DNA of 64,000 nt, from NCBI GenBank assembly GCA_037130265.1, contig JBAXTI010000001.1:98092-162091 (forward strand). The letters run 5' to 3'. This document shows, one piece after another, positions 1,061 through 53,420 of the stretch. How positions within the stretch are numbered: the stretch's first letter is position 1; every line of letters starts with the position of its first letter. Under the pieces are notes generated by a model. The model did not search any database and had not been told where the DNA came from. It saw only the letters and a program-made list of their open reading frames with translations. The stretch is from a bacterium (GTDB taxonomy: Bacteria; Patescibacteriota; Minisyncoccia; Phycocordibacterales; JBBTRF01). A program made the position numbers and the translations under genes.

Positions 1061-1168
1061 GGAAATACAAAACACCCTTCTTGGGGTACGCGTAAAAGCT
1101 TGCTAGCTTTTCGCTCCGGCTCGGCCCGACGGCCTCCGCAGTCCCCAAGAAGGGTGTTTTGTATTTCC
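1061..1168 (+). repeat. 26-bp perfect inverted repeat (1061-1086 / 1143-1168) enclosing a conserved 64-nt structured element (copy A, 1083-1146)
   Basis: ggaaatacaaaacacccttcttgggg ... ccccaagaagggtgttttgtatttcc is a perfect palindrome. The enclosed core aligns with 15627-15690, with compensatory changes in two hairpins. Confidence 0.75.
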
Positions 1169-1318: not shown

Positions 1319-1747
1319 TCAGTCCGTATAAACGGGTCTTTTTATCTTCCGATCGAAACCAGTCAAGACGTAGACCTCGGGAGTTGCCAGGATGAACAAT
1401 CCATCTCCGTCGTCATCAATCCAGCCTTCGATCAGTTGACCGTCGTGCTCTGGCCAGCCACTGATGACCCGTGCGCCGAAACAGTAGTGGTCCGGGGCAG
1501 TCGGCATGTATTTGATAGCAAAGGCTAGGACCTTGATATCAGCGTCTGCGGGTGCTATTTCCGACCGGTTGAGGTAGTGGATACTGGCGATTTTGAGCCG
1601 GAAAGGCTCTTTTTTATATTGGAAATCCACCATATCATCGATTATCGGCCCCGATACGAAGCGAAAGTGGCAGACCTCGGGGTAGAGACCGTTCTCGACC
1701 GCGCGGACGGTTAGATACATAGAAGGCGGGTTCCTTTCTGGATTCAA
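1319..1747 (-). CDS. Hypothetical protein (142 aa) inserted between fusA and tuf
   Basis: Clean ORF with its own terminator; protein-like composition (acidic DDDGDG patch); no family recognised by eye. Confidence 0.55.
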   Translation of the reverse strand: MNPERNPPSMYLTVRAVENGLYPEVCHFRFVSGPIIDDMVDFQYKKEPFRLKIASIHYLNRSEIAPADADIKVLAFAIKYMPTAPDHYCFGARVISGWPEHDGQLIEGWIDDDGDGLFILATPEVYVLTGFDRKIKRPVYTD

Positions 1748-2450: not shown

Positions 2451-2775
2451 AGTGATGGGTATAGTAATATAGAGTGTAATCATTCAACCCTGCCGCCGCC
2501 ACTGACGAAGACCTCTCGCAGGCGCGACGGCGCCGAGAGGAGCCGAAATTTCAGTAGAAATTTACGGCGTGTCTGAGGCAGTGGCGGCAAGGTTGACTTT
2601 ATTGCTCAATTTGTTACTATACCCATTGTCGCATTTTTTGCGTCTTTGGCCGTTTCGAATCAAAAGAAACGTCCTGGTATTAACTCGATTTATTATCATT
2701 AATTTTTGTTCTTAAGTTACAAGGCTCAGCCACTCTCGCGCGTTGAGCTTTGAGAATTAGGGACTCATTAAATAT

Positions 2776-3972: not shown

Positions 3973-4016
3973 GTCGCCGGCTCCGCGATTCATTCAAGAG
4001 GAGCCACATACTCACC

Positions 4017-4382
4017 ATGACCACAAAAGAAACAAAGAAATCTGACAAGGCCAAGACACACAAGGGCCAGGAGGTGAGCCACAAGCTCCGCATTCGTGTG
4101 CGAGCGTACGAGCACAAGATCCTCGATGCTTCTGTGAAGCAGATCATGGATACAGCGCTTCGATACGATGCCACCATCCTCGGACCGATCCCACTTCCTA
4201 CAGAAATCAAGAAGTACACTGTAAATCGAGCAGCCTTTGTCTACAAAGATGCACGAGAGCAGTTTGAGATGCGAGTTCACAAGCGATTGGTAGACATTGT
4301 GAATCCAAATCCAAAGACAATTGAGGCTCTCACCAACCTGAGTCTGCCTTCAGGAGTCAACATCGACGTAAAGATGATCTAA
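4017..4382 (+). CDS. rpsJ: 30S ribosomal protein S10
   Basis: [13 protein letters not shown]...NIDVKMI; canonical position after tuf. Confidence 0.93.
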
Positions 4383-7007: not shown

Positions 7008-7049
7008 AGCCAAAAGAAAAATCCCCGAGAGGGGTTTTTTCTTTTGGCT
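7008..7049 (+). terminator. Rho-independent terminator after rplB, interrupting the S10 operon
   Basis: Nested hairpin agccaaaag..cccc-gaga-gggg-tttttt..cttttggct. Confidence 0.7.
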
Positions 7050-7095: not shown

Positions 7096-7123
7096 TTGAC
7101 AAAGTAATGACATCGTCTATACT
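7096..7123 (+). promoter_or_regulatory. Sigma70-like promoter for the dinJ-yafQ pair (ttgaca-17-tatact)
   Basis: ttgaca at 7096-7101, tatact at about 7118-7123, followed by a GAGGG RBS and ATG 7130. Confidence 0.55.
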
Positions 7124-7129
7124 AGAGGG

Positions 7130-7399
7130 ATGAATACTACCATTCAACTTCGTATCGATAAGGCGACCAAAGTAAGCGCTCAAAAGGTGCTTGCCGAGCT
7201 TGGCTTGGACATGTCTTCCGCCATGAAGCTCTTTCTCCGCACGGTGTCACGGACCAAATCGATTCCTTTCGAAATCCGCACGGTAAATGGCTTTACTCCT
7301 GCCCAGGAGGCGCGAATGCTCAAAGAGATTGCTTGGACCGAGAAGTATGGAAAAGGATACAAGACCGCTGAAGAATTAACAAAACACCTGCTCTCGTAA
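7130..7399 (+). CDS. dinJ: Type II antitoxin, RelB/DinJ family
   Basis: MNTTIQLRIDKATKVSAQKVLAELGLDMSSAMKLFLRTVSRTKSIPFEI matches the DinJ ribbon-helix-helix N-terminus (RIDEDLK..A..VL...GL..S.....L..V..E..LPF). Confidence 0.8.
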   Translation: MNTTIQLRIDKATKVSAQKVLAELGLDMSSAMKLFLRTVSRTKSIPFEIRTVNGFTPAQEARMLKEIAWTEKYGKGYKTAEELTKHLLS

Positions 7400-7402
7400 G
7401 TA

Positions 7403-7681
7403 ATGCTTGAAATAAGAGAGACGAAACAATTTAAAAAGCAATTCAAACGAGTTGCCCGATCGGGCGATTTCGATATGAGACTGTTCCATGCAGTGCTTAA
7501 TGTGTTGGCAAGAGGCGAATCTCTTGATGAAAAGTATCGAGATCACCAGCTTTCCGGTGACATGAAGGAGGCTCGAGAATGTCATCTAAAAGGTGATTTG
7601 TTGTTGGTGTATAAGATAAGAAAGGAAATTCTCGTTTTATCCCTTGTCGGCATTGGTAGCCACTCTGAACTCTTCGACTAA
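7403..7681 (+). CDS. yafQ: Type II toxin, YafQ family mRNA interferase
   Basis: YRDHQLSGDMKEARECHLKGDLLLVYKI...GSHSELF aligns with the YafQ core (YKDHPLQGSWKGYRDAHVEPDWILIYK...GTHAALF). Confidence 0.85.
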   Translation: MLEIRETKQFKKQFKRVARSGDFDMRLFHAVLNVLARGESLDEKYRDHQLSGDMKEARECHLKGDLLLVYKIRKEILVLSLVGIGSHSELFD

Positions 7682-7784
7682 ATGACGCCCAACAACAAGC
7701 ATTCTATTCTTTTTGCACCCTCCTTTCTGGGCCAGCAGGAGAGTTGAGTTGACTTTATTTCTGCTTCTGCTAAGATACTAAGCC

Positions 7785-8156
7785 ATGGCTCAGGTGAGCT
7801 ATTTTCATTCATACATGACACGATCACTCGCAAAAGGACCATACGTCGCGGAGATTCTTCTCAAGAAGATCGCCGGCAAGAAGCCAGAACAAGCTGGTGT
7901 TATTAAGACCTGGGCTCGAGACAGCCAGATCTCTCCTGAAATGGTGGGATATAAGTTTGGCGTTCACAATGGTAAGGATCATATTGAAGTACTTGTCACC
8001 GAGGAAATGGTAGGTCACCGCCTCGGTGAATTTGCGCTTACCCGAAAGTTTGTACGACACGGAGGTAAGATGCAGAAGGAGCTTGAAGCCAAGAAGAAGG
8101 AGGCTGAGATCGCAGCTGCCCAGACCGCAAAGGCTACCGTGGCAGAAAAGAAATAA
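7785..8156 (+). CDS. rpsS: 30S ribosomal protein S19 (true start may be ATG 7815; Ala/Lys-rich C-terminal tail)
   Basis: [18 protein letters not shown]...[13 protein letters not shown]. Confidence 0.92.
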
Positions 8157-14322: not shown

Positions 14323-15603
14323 ATGGCAACGCTTATCGAAAAAATGAAACTCATCTTCACTGACAAGCTCCTTCGCAAGAAGGTGTTGTTTGTGTTGATT
14401 GGCCTGGTCTTGTTCCGCCTCCTCGCTACTATCCCAGTCCCAGGAGTGGATGTCATCCGACTGGAAGCCTTTTTCCGCACCAATGAATTTTTGAGTCTCA
14501 TCAACATCTTTTCAGGTAGTGGTTTGTCGAATCTTTCTGTCGTAATGCTTGGTGTCGGTCCGTACATCACTGCGTCTATCATTATGCAGCTCCTCACCAT
14601 GATGTCGCCAAAGCTTAAGGCGATGTATCAAGAAGAAGGGGATGCTGGACGCATTAAGTTTTCTCAATACTCTCGACGTCTCAGCATTCCTCTTGCGATG
14701 GTACAGGCGTACGGCTTCCTCCTTCTCTTGTCGAAGCAGGGGTTGCTCGGCAATCTCAGCGGCACCAGTCTTTTTGTGAATATTATCGTGATCACTGCTG
14801 GTTCAGCGCTCCTTATGTGGATTGGTGAACTGATCACCGAATACGGCATCGGCAACGGTCTCTCTATGATCATCTTCGCTGGTATCGTCTCACGCGTTCC
14901 TGCGGTGGCCGGACAGTTCCGAGACATTCTCGCGGCCGATCCTTCAAAATTACCTCTCTATATTGCTTTTGCACTTATTGCCTGTGTCGTGATCTGGGCG
15001 GTGGTTATTATCACCGAAGCGGAGCGTTCGATCCCTGTCACCTATGCCAAGCAGATGCACGGTAGCAACGCTACCAACGGTGGTTCCACCTATCTTCCTT
15101 TGCGAGTCAATCAGGCTGGTGTGATTCCAATCATTTTCGCTTTGTCGATCCTCCTTTTGCCGCAAATGGTCTTCAACTTCTTGAAAGAATTGAGTACTAA
15201 TCCAACTCTCATCGATATCTCACAGAAGGCGCTCCTATTGCTGAACAACAACTGGTTTCATGCGATCGCATATTTTGTGCTCGTCTTCCTCTTCACTTAC
15301 TTCTACACCGCGGTTACGTTTGATCCTCAGCAGATTGCCTCAAACCTCCAGAAGGGTGGCGCATTCATCCCAGGTGTTCGACCAGGCGACTCTACCGCTG
15401 AGTATCTTTCAAAGGTGGTGACTCGTATTACGCTCGTTGGTGCGGTCTTTTTGTCAGCAATTGCGGTGCTCCCACTCATCTTGCAGAATACGACTGGCAA
15501 CACTTCGTTTGCGATTGGCGGTACTGCGCTTTTGATTGTTGTGTCTGTCGTCATTGATTTGGTGAAGAAGATTGAGGGACAGGTTTCGATGCGGTCTTAC
15601 TAG
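14323..15603 (+). CDS. secY: Preprotein translocase subunit SecY
   Basis: 10-TM protein; SIIMQLLT, GIGNGLSMIIFAGIV signatures. Confidence 0.95.
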   Translation: MATLIEKMKLIFTDKLLRKKVLFVLIGLVLFRLLATIPVPGVDVIRLEAFFRTNEFLSLINIFSGSGLSNLSVVMLGVGPYITASIIMQLLTMMSPKLKAMYQEEGDAGRIKFSQYSRRLSIPLAMVQAYGFLLLLSKQGLLGNLSGTSLFVNIIVITAGSALLMWIGELITEYGIGNGLSMIIFAGIVSRVPAVAGQFRDILAADPSKLPLYIAFALIACVVIWAVVIITEAERSIPVTYAKQMHGSNATNGGSTYLPLRVNQAGVIPIIFALSILLLPQMVFNFLKELSTNPTLIDISQKALLLLNNNWFHAIAYFVLVFLFTYFYTAVTFDPQQIASNLQKGGAFIPGVRPGDSTAEYLSKVVTRITLVGAVFLSAIAVLPLILQNTTGNTSFAIGGTALLIVVSVVIDLVKKIEGQVSMRSY

Positions 15604-15626
15604 TAAAGAAATTGCGGTGTATACAT

Positions 15627-15703
15627 GGGGTACGCATAAATCTCTGCTGAGATTTTGCTCCGGCTCGCGCCAGTCGCGCTCCGCAGTCCCTGTTTTTTGT
15701 TTG
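15627..15703 (+). terminator. Copy B of the conserved 64-nt structured element (15627-15690) plus U-tract: terminator of secY/spc operon
   Basis: Aligns base-for-base with 1083-1146, with compensatory changes in both hairpins; followed by tgttttttgtttg. Confidence 0.7.
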
Positions 15704-15758
15704 CGCGCGGGTAGGTGAAAACACTGACAGACGGGCCTTCGGGTGATATTATGGCGAC

Positions 15759-16415
15759 ATGAACGAAAAAGCATCTACAGCTACAGCGGCTCCGCAAACC
15801 TTCATATTTATCGGCCGATCGGGGTCGGGGAAGGGTACGCAGGCGACCTTGCTTCAGGCATATTTGGAAAAGGGTGCAGGCAGGAGTGGCGACGTTGCTG
15901 GTGCGGGGGCTGCGCCGGTGAAATATCTCCAGACCGGTGCGGAGTTCCGCTCTTTTTTGCAGGGCGATTCGTATACGCAGAAGACGGCGAAGGCTTTGTC
16001 GACAAAGGGGGCATTACAGCCGGCGTTCTTGGCGATCTACATGTGGGCGAAGTTTTTCACCGAGAAGCTCACTGGAGGCGAGCATTTGATTATTGATGGT
16101 ACGCCTCGCAAGCGTGATGAGGCGCAGGTGCTCGACAGCGTCTTCGGCTTTTATGGTCGCACGAAACCAGTCATCCTTTTCATGAATGTTTCTGAGGTAG
16201 AGGCGGCTCGAAGACTCGCCGCCCGCCAGCGCCTCGACGACAACAGTGTCGAAATCCGTGGCCGCCTCGCTTGGTACAAGACCGATGTTGAGCCAGCAGT
16301 GGAGTGGTACCGTACCAATCCAAACTATCGCTTTGTCGAAGTGAACGGCGAACAGTCGGAAGCGAAGATTCACGAGGATATTGTCGCTGCAGTTGTGGCC
16401 ACGCCCACCAAATAA
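15759..16415 (+). CDS. adk: Adenylate kinase
   Basis: FIFIGRSGSGKGTQA P-loop, short LID without a zinc knuckle; position after secY. Confidence 0.88.
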   Translation: MNEKASTATAAPQTFIFIGRSGSGKGTQATLLQAYLEKGAGRSGDVAGAGAAPVKYLQTGAEFRSFLQGDSYTQKTAKALSTKGALQPAFLAIYMWAKFFTEKLTGGEHLIIDGTPRKRDEAQVLDSVFGFYGRTKPVILFMNVSEVEAARRLAARQRLDDNSVEIRGRLAWYKTDVEPAVEWYRTNPNYRFVEVNGEQSEAKIHEDIVAAVVATPTK

Positions 16416-29029: not shown

Positions 29030-29082
29030 GGTTTCTTGTATAAGTTGGTAGTCGCCTAATTATACACGCCAATGAATCAAAC

Positions 29083-29109
29083 AAAAAACCGCCTGATGGC
29101 GGTTTTTTT
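29083..29109. terminator. Bidirectional rho-independent terminator (A-run / ccgcc-tgat-ggcgg / T-run)
   Basis: Terminates the minus-strand infC-rpmI-rplT operon. Confidence 0.7.
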
Positions 29110-29125
29110 GTTTATTTTGTATTTC

Positions 29126-33506: not shown

Positions 33507-33646
33507 TGGGGGAATTGGTCACAGGTTCTTTTTGCTCCGCAAAAATCCCCGCGACCCCGCCTCGCTCGGTGCAATTCGCTTCGCTCATATAGCACCGTCG
33601 CTCCGGCTTTCAATTCCTGCTTCCATGTTTCCAAACAAACAAAAAA

Positions 33647-33670
33647 GCATCCGGGGAGGATGCTTTTTTG
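33647..33670. terminator. Bidirectional terminator (A-run / gcatcc-gggga-ggatgc / T-run) serving the minus-strand tmRNA
   Basis: Hairpin flanked by A and T runs, immediately 3' of the tmRNA end. Confidence 0.7.
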
Positions 33671-33677
33671 TTTGTTG

Positions 33678-34069
33678 TGGAGATGGGAGGAATTGAACCC
33701 CCGTGCAGAAGAGTCTAGTGAATGGGTCTACGAAGGGTAGGGCGCTTCTATGTCTGCGGGGCAGACAATTCGCGTGTGCCGTTATGAAACGACCGAAAGG
33801 CGGCTCGCGCTATTCCCATGATCTCGAATCGGCGGCGGGACTCCGCTGATCCTATTCCACAAATATAGCGTCAGGACCGAACGGTGTGGAAACCATCCGG
33901 CTGGCGTCGCTTAGGCTTTAGCGTAAGCGAATGCAAAGTCGTTCGCACTTGCGTACGGAGACTTTACAGATCCAAGTTTTGCACTTAGAATTTTCAGCCT
34001 TTTTAAGAGTTACTGAAGCTCTCCTTCGCACATTCAAGAGATATTCTTCCGTCGATGCCTGGCATCCCC
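33678..34069 (-). ncRNA. ssrA: tmRNA (SsrA), about 392 nt
   Basis: Minus strand 5'-GGGGATGCCAGGCATCGACGG... and 3'-...GGGGGTTCAATTCCTCCCATCTCCAC (tRNA-like T-arm and acceptor); candidate tag ORF ...GCGAACGACTTTGCATTCGCTTACGCTAAAGCCTAA (ANDFAFAYAKA*); smpB immediately upstream. Confidence 0.85.
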
Positions 34070-42068: not shown

Positions 42069-42082
42069 GGTGAGCAAAAAGA

Positions 42083-42125
42083 AAACCGCTTCCGTCGTGT
42101 CTGGGACGGAAGCGGTTTTCTTTTT
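42083..42125. terminator. Bidirectional terminator between ung and the convergent minus-strand operon
   Basis: aaaaccgcttccgtc...gacggaagcggtttt plus T-run. Confidence 0.75.
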
Positions 42126-42127
42126 GT

Positions 42128-42595
42128 TTACTGAGTGACAATGATCAACCCCTTTGCTGAAGGATTGTTCTTGTTGAAATACTGATAGGTCCCTGGGGTC
42201 ACGAAGCTAAAGTTGTACACGCCGCCTTTGCCAACAGATCGCTCTTGGTTGAATGTTGGGAATTCGCTGTGATATGCGTCAGGGCCTGACATCACCCACA
42301 TTGAGAGGGTGCTGTTGTTTACAAATTTCATACCCTCGCCGGCCTTCACGTTGAGAGTGGTTGGGGTGAACGCTCCTGCGGCGTATGAAACGGTATTCTT
42401 CGCAACTGGTGTTGCCTTCACTACTGGCTTTGGTGTTGGGGCTGTAGGGGTGGTGTCCTGTACTGGTGGTGTGAGGGTGGCCTGAGATTGCTGTTGAGTA
42501 TTTTGTTCAGCTGGTGCCTGTGCGCTATTGAAATAGAAGAAGAGTCCGACGATGACGATGACTGCGACGAGCGTGATGGATTGATTTTTATTCAT
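42128..42595 (-). CDS. Membrane-anchored cupredoxin-like domain protein lacking copper ligands
   Basis: N-terminal TM, Pro/Thr-rich linker, C-terminal beta-sandwich pattern ...TLNVKAGEGMKFVN...PGTYQYFNKNNPSAKGLIIV with no Cys/His/Met ligand set. Confidence 0.5.
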   Translation of the reverse strand: MNKNQSITLVAVIVIVGLFFYFNSAQAPAEQNTQQQSQATLTPPVQDTTPTAPTPKPVVKATPVAKNTVSYAAGAFTPTTLNVKAGEGMKFVNNSTLSMWVMSGPDAYHSEFPTFNQERSVGKGGVYNFSFVTPGTYQYFNKNNPSAKGLIIVTQ

Positions 42596-44440: not shown

Positions 44441-44530
44441 TGGCGGAAAGAGTGGGATTCGAACCCACGGTCCGTTTAACGGGACGACGGTTTAGTAAAC
44501 CGTTGATTTAAACCACTCATCCATCTTTCC
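44441..44530 (-). tRNA. Class II tRNA, Ser-like, anticodon ACU (A34), CCA encoded
   Basis: GGAAAGA/TCTTTCC acceptor, 3-bp D-stem with GAGTGGTTTAA loop, anticodon stem ACGGT/ACCGT with loop TTACTAA, long variable arm, discriminator G. Confidence 0.7.
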
Positions 44531-44719: not shown

Positions 44720-44807
44720 GCGGAAGGGGGGGGATTCGAACCCCCGAGGGTTGTTTAGACCCTGCCTCTTTAGCAAAGAGGTACATTCGACCGCTCTGAC
44801 ACCCCTC
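44720..44807 (-). tRNA. tRNA-Ser, anticodon GCU
   Basis: GGAGGGG/CCCTTCC acceptor, D-loop GAGCGGTCGAA, anticodon loop TTGCTAA, long variable arm, T-arm GGGGG-TTCGAAT-CCCCC, discriminator G. Confidence 0.8.
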
Positions 44808-44878
44808 CGTGGACATTGGCGATGATAGCATATTTTCCTGCGTTTATGCCAGTCTTTGTCGGACTAGCAGGGGGTATT

Positions 44879-53353: not shown

Positions 53354-53364
53354 GCAGTAATTCC

Positions 53365-53420
53365 TAGTCGACCAAACAAAAAACCCACTACCATAGTGGG
53401 TTTTTTGTTTGGTCGACTAG
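53365..53420 (+). terminator. Strong nested-hairpin terminator after pilA
   Basis: ctagtcgaccaaacaaaaaa-cccacta-cca-tagtggg-ttttttgtttggtcgactag. Confidence 0.8.

Follow-up and report, generated by a model that had tools for sequence, protein, structure and literature searches.

A genus-specific palindromic element with a branched apex at the borders of ribosomal-protein transcription units

The organization of transcription in the Patescibacteria (CPR) is little known. We describe a repeated palindromic element, specific to one genus of these tiny uncultured bacteria, that stands at the borders of ribosomal-protein and other translation-gene units. It is a DNA segment of ~110-130 bp in which a homologous three-way junction of ~65 nt tops a long, near-perfect stem. 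Judging from sequence and genomic setting, we see about an even chance that it acts as a terminator and insulator at these borders. It is a variant of the terminator-associated palindromic repeats, not a new class of regulatory RNA. The fold of the element is well supported by comparison of its copies, and its function we infer.

A repeated palindrome capped by a three-way junction

The window (the whole stretch of DNA analyzed, 64 kb in length) contains copies A, A' and B of the element and no others, all within its first 16 kb, as judged with an improved covariance model (R2) at full sensitivity. The original prediction had reported two of these, a core at 1083-1146 recurring at 15627-15690, and both were found there. 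Copy A is complete (1061-1168, plus strand): directly behind the stop codon of fusA, which ends at 1060, a 5' arm (1061-1082) leads into the core (1083-1146) and a 3' arm (1147-1168) closes the stem. Within its core, helix P1 (1083-1086/1143-1146 and 1088-1089/1141-1142) opens into two branches, P2 (1090-1092/1112-1114) with hairpin 1 (1094-1100/1105-1111, loop 1101-1104) and P3 (1117-1119/1136-1138) with hairpin 2 (1123-1126/1131-1134). Copy B (15608-15703, plus strand) lies directly 3' of secY, which ends at 15603, so the reported location of both copies immediately behind a gene is accurate. Of its outer stem the 5' arm alone remains (15608-15626, GAAATTGCGGTGTATACAT); the 3' arm is lost, and the core (15627-15690) is followed by a U-tract (TGTTTTTTGTTTG, 15691-15703). 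The third copy, A', is additional to the two in the prediction. It is diverged and inverted (2484-2595, minus strand; core 2509-2574 in the minus-strand reading), with an outer stem CAACCCTGCCGCCGCCACTG.../...CAGTGGCGGCAAGGTTG whose end falls within the -35 box of the tuf promoter. Copy A' scored 28 bits with the first covariance model (R1) and 68.7 bits with the improved one.

Copies A and B are homologous, with the blocks GGGGTACGC, GCTCCGGCTCG and CTCCGCAGTCCC in common. The pattern GCTCCGGCTCG-N8-18-CTCCGCAGTCCC occurs twice in the window and in none of 100 shuffles. Hairpin 1 reads AAAAGCT-TGCT-AGCTTTT in A and AAATCTC-TGCT-GAGATTT in B, which amounts to four compensated positions where three had been counted. 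Hairpin 2 is GGCC-CGAC-GGCC in A and GCGC-CAGTC-GCGC in B, exactly as described. The 26-nt palindrome noted around copy A (1061-1086/1143-1168) is perfect and extends by one further base on each side (26-27 bp), and at 88% complementarity it reaches 1044-1086/1143-1185. Folding of the 108 nt from 1061 to 1168 gave -67 kcal/mol (z = -11). The 64-nt cores folded alone are unexceptional in energy (z = -1.7 and -0.9), and the case for a conserved structure therefore rests on comparison among copies.

Further copies were sought by exact-pattern scans that demanded 22 exact bases. With one genome per species there was one true match, after rplB in a metagenome-assembled genome labelled Candidatus Saccharibacteria; 5 of the 6 hits were chance matches in high-G+C DNA. 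The metagenome scan, in which such chance matches made up 5 of 11 hits, added four distinct copies, of which three are on a single 680-kb groundwater contig, behind rpsG, rplK and secY; all three exact-pattern matches on this contig were true, and the parts of it that were read hold one diverged copy in addition. In these scans of whole collections, true copies were found only behind rpsG, rplK, secY and rplB. Plasmids, phages and viral contigs contained no true match, all 5 viral hits to a looser pattern being due to chance.

The first covariance model, built from seven copies, recovered diverged inverted copies at 2509-2574 of the window (minus strand) and at 3973-4039 of region L006, and orthologous regions of relatives were fetched via homologues of S3, Adk and EF-Tu. 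As had been suggested, a covariance-model search of relatives turned up further copies: the final set comprises 19, from about six genomes of one genus. By Adk the limit of this clade is sharp, with nine protein clusters at 82-89% identity followed by a drop to 62%; SecY is ~94% identical within it. In the fetched regions of three relatives just outside the genus there is no copy and the secY-adk spacer measures just 26-65 nt, in line with the predicted lineage specificity. Copy number is ~3-5 per genome, all at ribosomal-protein unit borders, a count that, for the covariance model, covers the 64-kb window (at full sensitivity) and the fetched regions. The near-invariance of the "type 1" core blocks is in part an ascertainment effect of the exact-pattern search, and copies found with the covariance model differ in these blocks. 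A weak model hit at 960-1023 of region L008, considered as a partner of copy D, lies within the fusA coding sequence and was set aside as chance.

The comparison with Rfam that had been proposed gave no family for the element. At the gathering threshold, Rfam 15 reported only a tmRNA and two tRNAs in the window. At E<=10, a search of regions 1000-1400 and 15560-15780 returned nothing on the element, hits near 1240-1340 belonging to a neighbouring short terminator. As far as our searches show, the family is absent from Rfam and has no description in the literature. ARAGORN places two neighbouring tRNA-Ser genes at 44441-44530 and 44720-44808 (minus strand); the anticodon of one, ACT, is unusual, and the other (GCT) is absent from the Rfam scan output.

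All 19 copies form the same three-way junction of P1, P2 with hairpin 1, and P3 with hairpin 2. In the alignment of the 19 copies, which is fitted to the model and whose members are related to each other, 19 of 23 base pairs have changes on both sides (100 cells) and 93.5% of cells are paired, a level that 0 of 500 shuffles reached; controls with slid partners gave 32-51% pairing. RNAalifold independently returned the same junction, with 18 of 21 pairs compensated. Hairpins 1 and 2 are 100% paired in every copy. Hairpin 1 follows the consensus AAA-W-NYY with a loop YRSU, and hairpin 2 has 4-5 bp and a CGUC-like loop; in the four orthologous copies that precede tuf, the latter reads GGCGC/GCGCC, GCCAC/GUGGC, GCCGC/GCGGC and GACAC/GUGUC. 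Invariant in all 19 copies are YAC before P2, U before hairpin 1, CUC before hairpin 2, the AAA/UUU base of hairpin 1 and both loop types, and the 5' strand of hairpin 1 is always pyrimidine-rich. Junction strands are 0-3 nt long. Most copies have an outer stem of 20-31 bp, which pairs perfectly in A, C, E and F and almost perfectly in most of the rest, and between sites the stem sequences are unrelated.

The original prediction had taken covariation to imply selection on RNA structure. The covariation is borne out. The RNA-only reading of it is not, because G-U pairs are nearly absent from the core (1-3 of 432 cells), a scarcity unusual for a purely RNA-level constraint, and because copies occur in both orientations. 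Constraint on both strands, or maintenance of a palindrome at the DNA level, is as compatible with these features as RNA selection. With its near-pure Watson-Crick covariation the element thus offers a test case for distinguishing RNA-level from DNA-level maintenance of palindromes. The compact fold, supported by covariation, could enter RNA family databases, and in these genomes the element is a marker for operon borders.

Two other roles for the junction were considered and rejected. Small self-cleaving ribozymes do not fit: the junction strands measure 0-3 nt, CUGANGA and GAAA motifs are lacking, and Rfam gave no hit at E<=10. Nor did the variable bases of hairpin 1 behave as a "guide" to arms or flanks, there being no consistent match on inspection of the first seven copies.

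Unit borders, promoters and termination

Position and orientation of the copies agree in 19 of 19 cases. The 12 sense copies all start 0-25 nt after a stop codon, that of fusA (three genomes), rplB (three), secY (four), rpsG or rplK. The seven inverted copies all end in the -35 box of a promoter, that of tuf (four genomes) or rpsS (three); CAAC opens their stems and GTTG, part of the TTGAC(A/T) box, closes them. In the window, the tuf promoter (2593-2620, plus strand; TTGACT, 16-nt spacer, TACTAT, TG extension) overlaps the 3' base of the A' hairpin, with tuf starting at 2776. The adk promoter (15724-15752, plus strand; CTGACA, 17-nt spacer, TATTAT, TG extension) lies 21 nt behind the U-tract of copy B and 7 nt ahead of the adk ATG (15759). 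The rpsS promoter (7749-7776, plus strand; TTGACT, 16-nt spacer, TAAGAT) is conserved across the genus. With consensus promoters following at these three places, the predicted association of the element with the 3' ends of translation-gene units holds.

A 13-mer, AGGTTGACTTTAT, is shared beside the inverted copies of the window and of region L006. It was rejected as part of a mobile module: ribosomal-protein promoters have it as their -35 region, and it is kept at the orthologous place before rpsS even where the element is missing. The -10 boxes of rpsS and adk end 7-9 nt before the ATG (7749-7787 and 15724-15761), so that their mRNAs would be leaderless or nearly so; for rpsS this arrangement is conserved genus-wide.

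The element resembles bidirectional intrinsic (Rho-independent) terminators in its location right after stop codons at unit ends, with promoters following, and in the succession of A-rich 5' flank, G+C-rich stem and U-rich 3' flank in one long hairpin. An A-rich 5' arm and a U-rich 3' arm beside a G+C-rich stem segment are found in copies A, A2, A4, C, C2/I, E and F. These copies have a stem with an immediate U-tract; so has B, in which, the outer stem being lost, the U-tract directly follows the core. Unlike ordinary intrinsic terminators, the element has a stem of 20-31 bp and, in place of a loop, the conserved covarying junction of 65 nt; as a module it recurs at several sites in both orientations, and some copies are without a proper U-tract. 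Arm polarity (A/U) is reversed in D and H, which have no U-tract behind the stem on the operon strand, and copy D is followed by a separate ordinary terminator. The seven inverted copies have G+C-rich stems that run into promoter sequence (ACTTTATT) with no clean U-run, and conform only loosely to the pattern of stem and U-tract.

Elsewhere in the window, ordinary terminators at 53364-53420, 42070-42131, 33634-33676, 29075-29116 and 7008-7049 are also unusually long, being perfect or near-perfect A-tract/U-tract palindromes of 19-27 bp with loops of 3-8 nt. In copy A'3 (L045 9700-9830), the stem holds the whole TTGACT box, and the complement, AGTCAA, is a mirror -35 box that faces the island and could belong to a divergent promoter. 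Many independent short-read assemblies break in or at elements, about 134 nt before adk in L031-L038 and at A' in L048 and L049, which accords with assemblers failing to span long palindromes or repeats.

If the element is a terminator, the transcript of the upstream unit would have it as its 3' end. The pair of small junction hairpins would fold first and, as a pre-folded nucleus, draw the long arms together; the arms would then zip up to the U-rich tract and RNA polymerase would be released, as in intrinsic termination. The same structure may also shield the 3' end of the transcript. Inverted copies would stop transcripts running out of the accessory islands described below and, doing the same job from the other side, would leave each island insulated from the essential operons at both ends. 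On this mechanism only a compact, stable fold is needed, so that either orientation would work, helices could drift in a compensatory manner and a plain hairpin could substitute. Orientation independence, the substitution of plain hairpins, the U-tracts (including that after B), the adjacent promoters and the presence of other long-palindrome terminators all fit with termination. The polarity of D and H, the branched apex with invariant bases, the mirrored islands and the G-U-free core do not fit it well.

Among the functions originally put forward, the terminator stands as the best functional guess, with 3' unit ends and a promoter next to the element. The small RNA and the attenuator fall away. 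With the stem beginning at the stop codon and no space left for a promoter, the element is not a free-standing small RNA. An attenuator or leader of the downstream ribosomal-protein gene was rejected because sense copies are followed by a promoter or island and inverted copies lie upstream of the -35 box. Our observations suggest that in this genus the str-S10-spc cluster is cut into separately promoted units by long branched hairpins.

Loss, decay and exchange among copies

The element behaves as a repeated DNA element, with likeness within genomes, decayed copies and lost cores. Copies H, I and A4, which come from one species, have subtype-specific helices in common, and B, E and G, from the secY site of other genomes, belong to another subtype; copies within a genome can thus be more alike than orthologues. 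Between copy A and its orthologue from a genome whose EF-Tu is 98% identical, P1 and both hairpins differ, which indicates replacement or gene conversion among copies. Conversely, the whole hairpins of A, after fusA, and F, after rplK in another genome, are ~87% alike including the arms, at sites that are not orthologous. Copy G (L016), the orthologue of B, has decayed in a complementary way, keeping only the 3' arm of the stem of which B keeps the 5' arm.

At several orthologous sites a plain hairpin stands in place of the element. After rplB in the window, a 19-bp terminator hairpin (7008-7049, plus strand; arms AGCCAAAAGAAAA / TTTTCTTTTGGCT) has no three-way-junction core, and its outer arms and downstream flank align with copy C of a relative, so that this is the same site without the core. 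L018 likewise has a plain hairpin after rplB, with flanks only partly shared, and L043 has one after secY. Ahead of the rpsS promoter, window positions 7715-7748 (7715-7776 with the promoter, plus strand) appear to be an internally deleted remnant of the inverted copy that precedes rpsS elsewhere. From these alignments, the core-less hairpins at orthologous sites apparently arose by deletion of the core. Every polarizable change was a loss and none a gain; no unambiguous new insertion was found among the orthologous sites.

These observations bear on the possibility that the element is a selfish or neutral non-autonomous repeat (MITE/REP/ERIC-like) lodged in the loops of existing terminators, its junction being without function for the host. 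Several of them would be expected of such a repeat: presence and absence vary at orthologous terminators with common outer arms, the A and F hairpins are alike at non-orthologous sites, H, I and A4 are closer to each other than orthologues are, and copies have decayed (B, G) or been deleted (7715-7748; L043). The occurrence of both orientations and the Watson-Crick-only covariation of the core point the same way. We nevertheless consider this origin unlikely. In such a repeat the arms would be the terminal repeats, yet it is they that are conserved least; neither a target-site duplication nor a neighbouring transposase is seen; the few copies per genome keep to ribosomal-protein unit borders, with perfect agreement of position and orientation. 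Moreover, the polarizable changes are losses, the occupancy of fusA|tuf, rplB|rpsS and secY|adk is conserved genus-wide, and no plasmid, phage or viral contig matched.

Comparison with known repeat families leads to a similar picture. Like ERIC/IRU, REP/BIME/REPIN, BOX, RUP and Correia sequences, the element is an intergenic, transcribed palindromic repeat of ~100-130 bp found in either orientation, and in common with ERIC/REP-type families it evolves in concert within genomes and undergoes loss and decay. Such palindromic repeats affect termination and mRNA stability in other bacteria. In this element the center is conserved and the arms vary, the reverse of what is seen in those families; it is also unlike them in its handful of copies, in its confinement to ribosomal-protein operon borders and in having no known associated transposase. 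REP/REPIN sequences (a 20-40-nt unit with a GTAG-type head) fit neither its length nor its sequence. A match to a known mobile MITE family had been named as one finding that would speak against the original prediction, and the hallmarks of a MITE, conserved terminal repeats and a target-site duplication, are absent: the outer arms are unrelated between most copies, and there is no duplicated flank in A, C, E, F or I. Dispersal of the MITE/REP kind is likewise not what the window presents, since its 64 kb hold three copies, each of them within the ribosomal-protein cluster.

Strand of selection and the accessory islands

The core, being Watson-Crick only, gives no answer as to which strand is selected. 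Free-energy differences were rejected as a strand test because they are confounded by an intrinsic advantage of the core's complement, which is the more stable by 4-10 kcal/mol even with perfect arms; this leaves only the G-U counts of the arms as informative. Read on the operon strand, the arms of inverted copies J, C' and A'3 contain 5-6 G-U pairs, against 0-1 on the opposite strand, and copy K follows the same trend more weakly (3 and 1). This bias indicates that selection on J, C' and A'3 acts on the operon-direction transcript, so that inverted copies seem to be selected as hairpins in RNA that is the complement of the sense form.

Whether the junction might instead be a specific protein-binding or processing site in the mRNA, which sets 3' ends or regulates read-through (attenuation), can be weighed against this result. 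Candidate binders would be the NYN-domain RNase encoded between two copies, RNase III acting on the stem, or a ribosomal protein. Loop and junction features are invariant in 19 of 19 copies, the association with translation-gene operons is exclusive, and in three species the rplB and rpsS copies have an NYN gene between them; as a general matter, RNase III could take perfect stems as long as these (22-31 bp) for substrates. Such a site is nonetheless rather improbable, since the seven copies transcribed as the complement, by the operon-strand G-U evidence, would present other bases. Helix sequences also differ between subtypes, plain hairpins stand in at some sites, and the genome of the window is without NYN at the rplB/rpsS junction, yet keeps A, A' and B.

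Solitary copies occur at secY|adk, rpsG| and rplK|. At fusA|tuf and rplB|rpsS, mirror-oriented copies with the hairpin-2 side inward mark the ends of islands whose contents differ between close relatives. In the window, the island between A and A' (1319-2450) comprises an uncharacterized 142-aa ORF (1319-1747, minus strand) together with a short terminator of its own (1256-1278), a PhdYefM-type antitoxin (1970-2224) and a small toxin-like ORF (2211-2450), the last two on the plus strand. The promoter of the PhdYefM pair, at 1941, overlaps a perfect 15+15 palindrome (1944-1973) that is likely the operator of this toxin-antitoxin pair. Two relatives carry at this site the same toxin-antitoxin pair together with a reverse transcriptase (L046 3709-6421 and L044 4289-6901), in the place that corresponds to 1170-1960 of the window; the fusA|tuf island of the window has no reverse transcriptase. 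In L046 it is accompanied by a bAvd gene and is therefore a diversity-generating retroelement. The 142-aa ORF of the window has no similarity to the bAvd of the relatives' retroelement and was rejected as a bAvd. A role of the element as a target hairpin of such a retroelement was also rejected, since copies at secY|adk and rplB|rpsS are without a reverse transcriptase and there is no extra copy near the reverse transcriptase in L044 or L046.

The contents of the rplB|rpsS island vary as well: NYN, APH/RelB, a methyltransferase with a ResIII helicase, or a RelB/YafQ pair. The RelB/YafQ-like pair of the window (7130-7399 and 7403-7681) has a promoter at 7096 (TTGACA, 16-nt spacer, TATACT), so that two toxin-antitoxin pairs (7096-7681 and 1941-2450) lie inside its ribosomal-protein cluster. 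In three species, an NYN gene bracketed by element copies occupies the site; this gene, which encodes a putative RNase, is antisense between rplB and rpsS (L026 1129-1620, L039 1242-1763, L045 14592-15080). A second NYN gene is present ~10 kb downstream in L026 (20001-20501), beside an RNase J-like gene.

The mirror arrangement at both islands would also look like the terminal inverted repeats of a mobile unit. A speculative extension, to which we attach little probability, is that mirrored elements are more than terminators and form the functional borders of a novel kind of "landing pad" within the ribosomal-protein operons of these reduced genomes, at which a host factor, for example the NYN nuclease encoded between copies, recognizes the RNA or ssDNA. 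If so, toxin-antitoxin, diversity-generating retroelement and restriction-modification cassettes would be swapped in and out while the essential operons are insulated. The element is like integron attC sites and Xer-site-flanked (pdif-type) modules, which form folded or palindromic borders of exchangeable cassettes with structure more conserved than sequence. Unlike these, it has no conserved R-box or dif-like core sites and no integrase, its partners are inverted with one pair per multi-gene island, and some copies are solitary and cassette-less; attC sites come one per cassette. An identity with integron attC was rejected because the stem bases share no motif (no R''/R' core sites) and the partners of an island are inverted, not in the same orientation.

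It is very unlikely that the element works at the DNA level, as recombination or transposition ends at island borders or as cruciforms that sequester the -35 box and so render the tuf and rpsS promoters supercoiling-sensitive: mirrored copies do bracket both islands of variable content (toxin-antitoxin, RT/bAvd, NYN, methyltransferase/ResIII helicase, APH), core pairing is Watson-Crick only and the stems include the GTTG of the TTGAC box, but the islands have no associated recombinase or transposase, three sites have solitary copies, paired partners are only ~55-60% identical, the arm G-U pairs of several copies point to RNA-level selection, and islands would gather between any terminator and promoter, where insertions are harmless. 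Returning to the terminator/insulator, our comparison suggests that accessory and defence genes collect in the gaps that separate these hairpins from the next promoter.

The tmRNA gene of the window occupies 33675-34069 (minus strand), and ~57 nt past its 3' end lies a 19-nt inverted partial copy of its T-arm region (33600-33618, corresponding to 33688-33706), which may be an integration remnant or a chance similarity.
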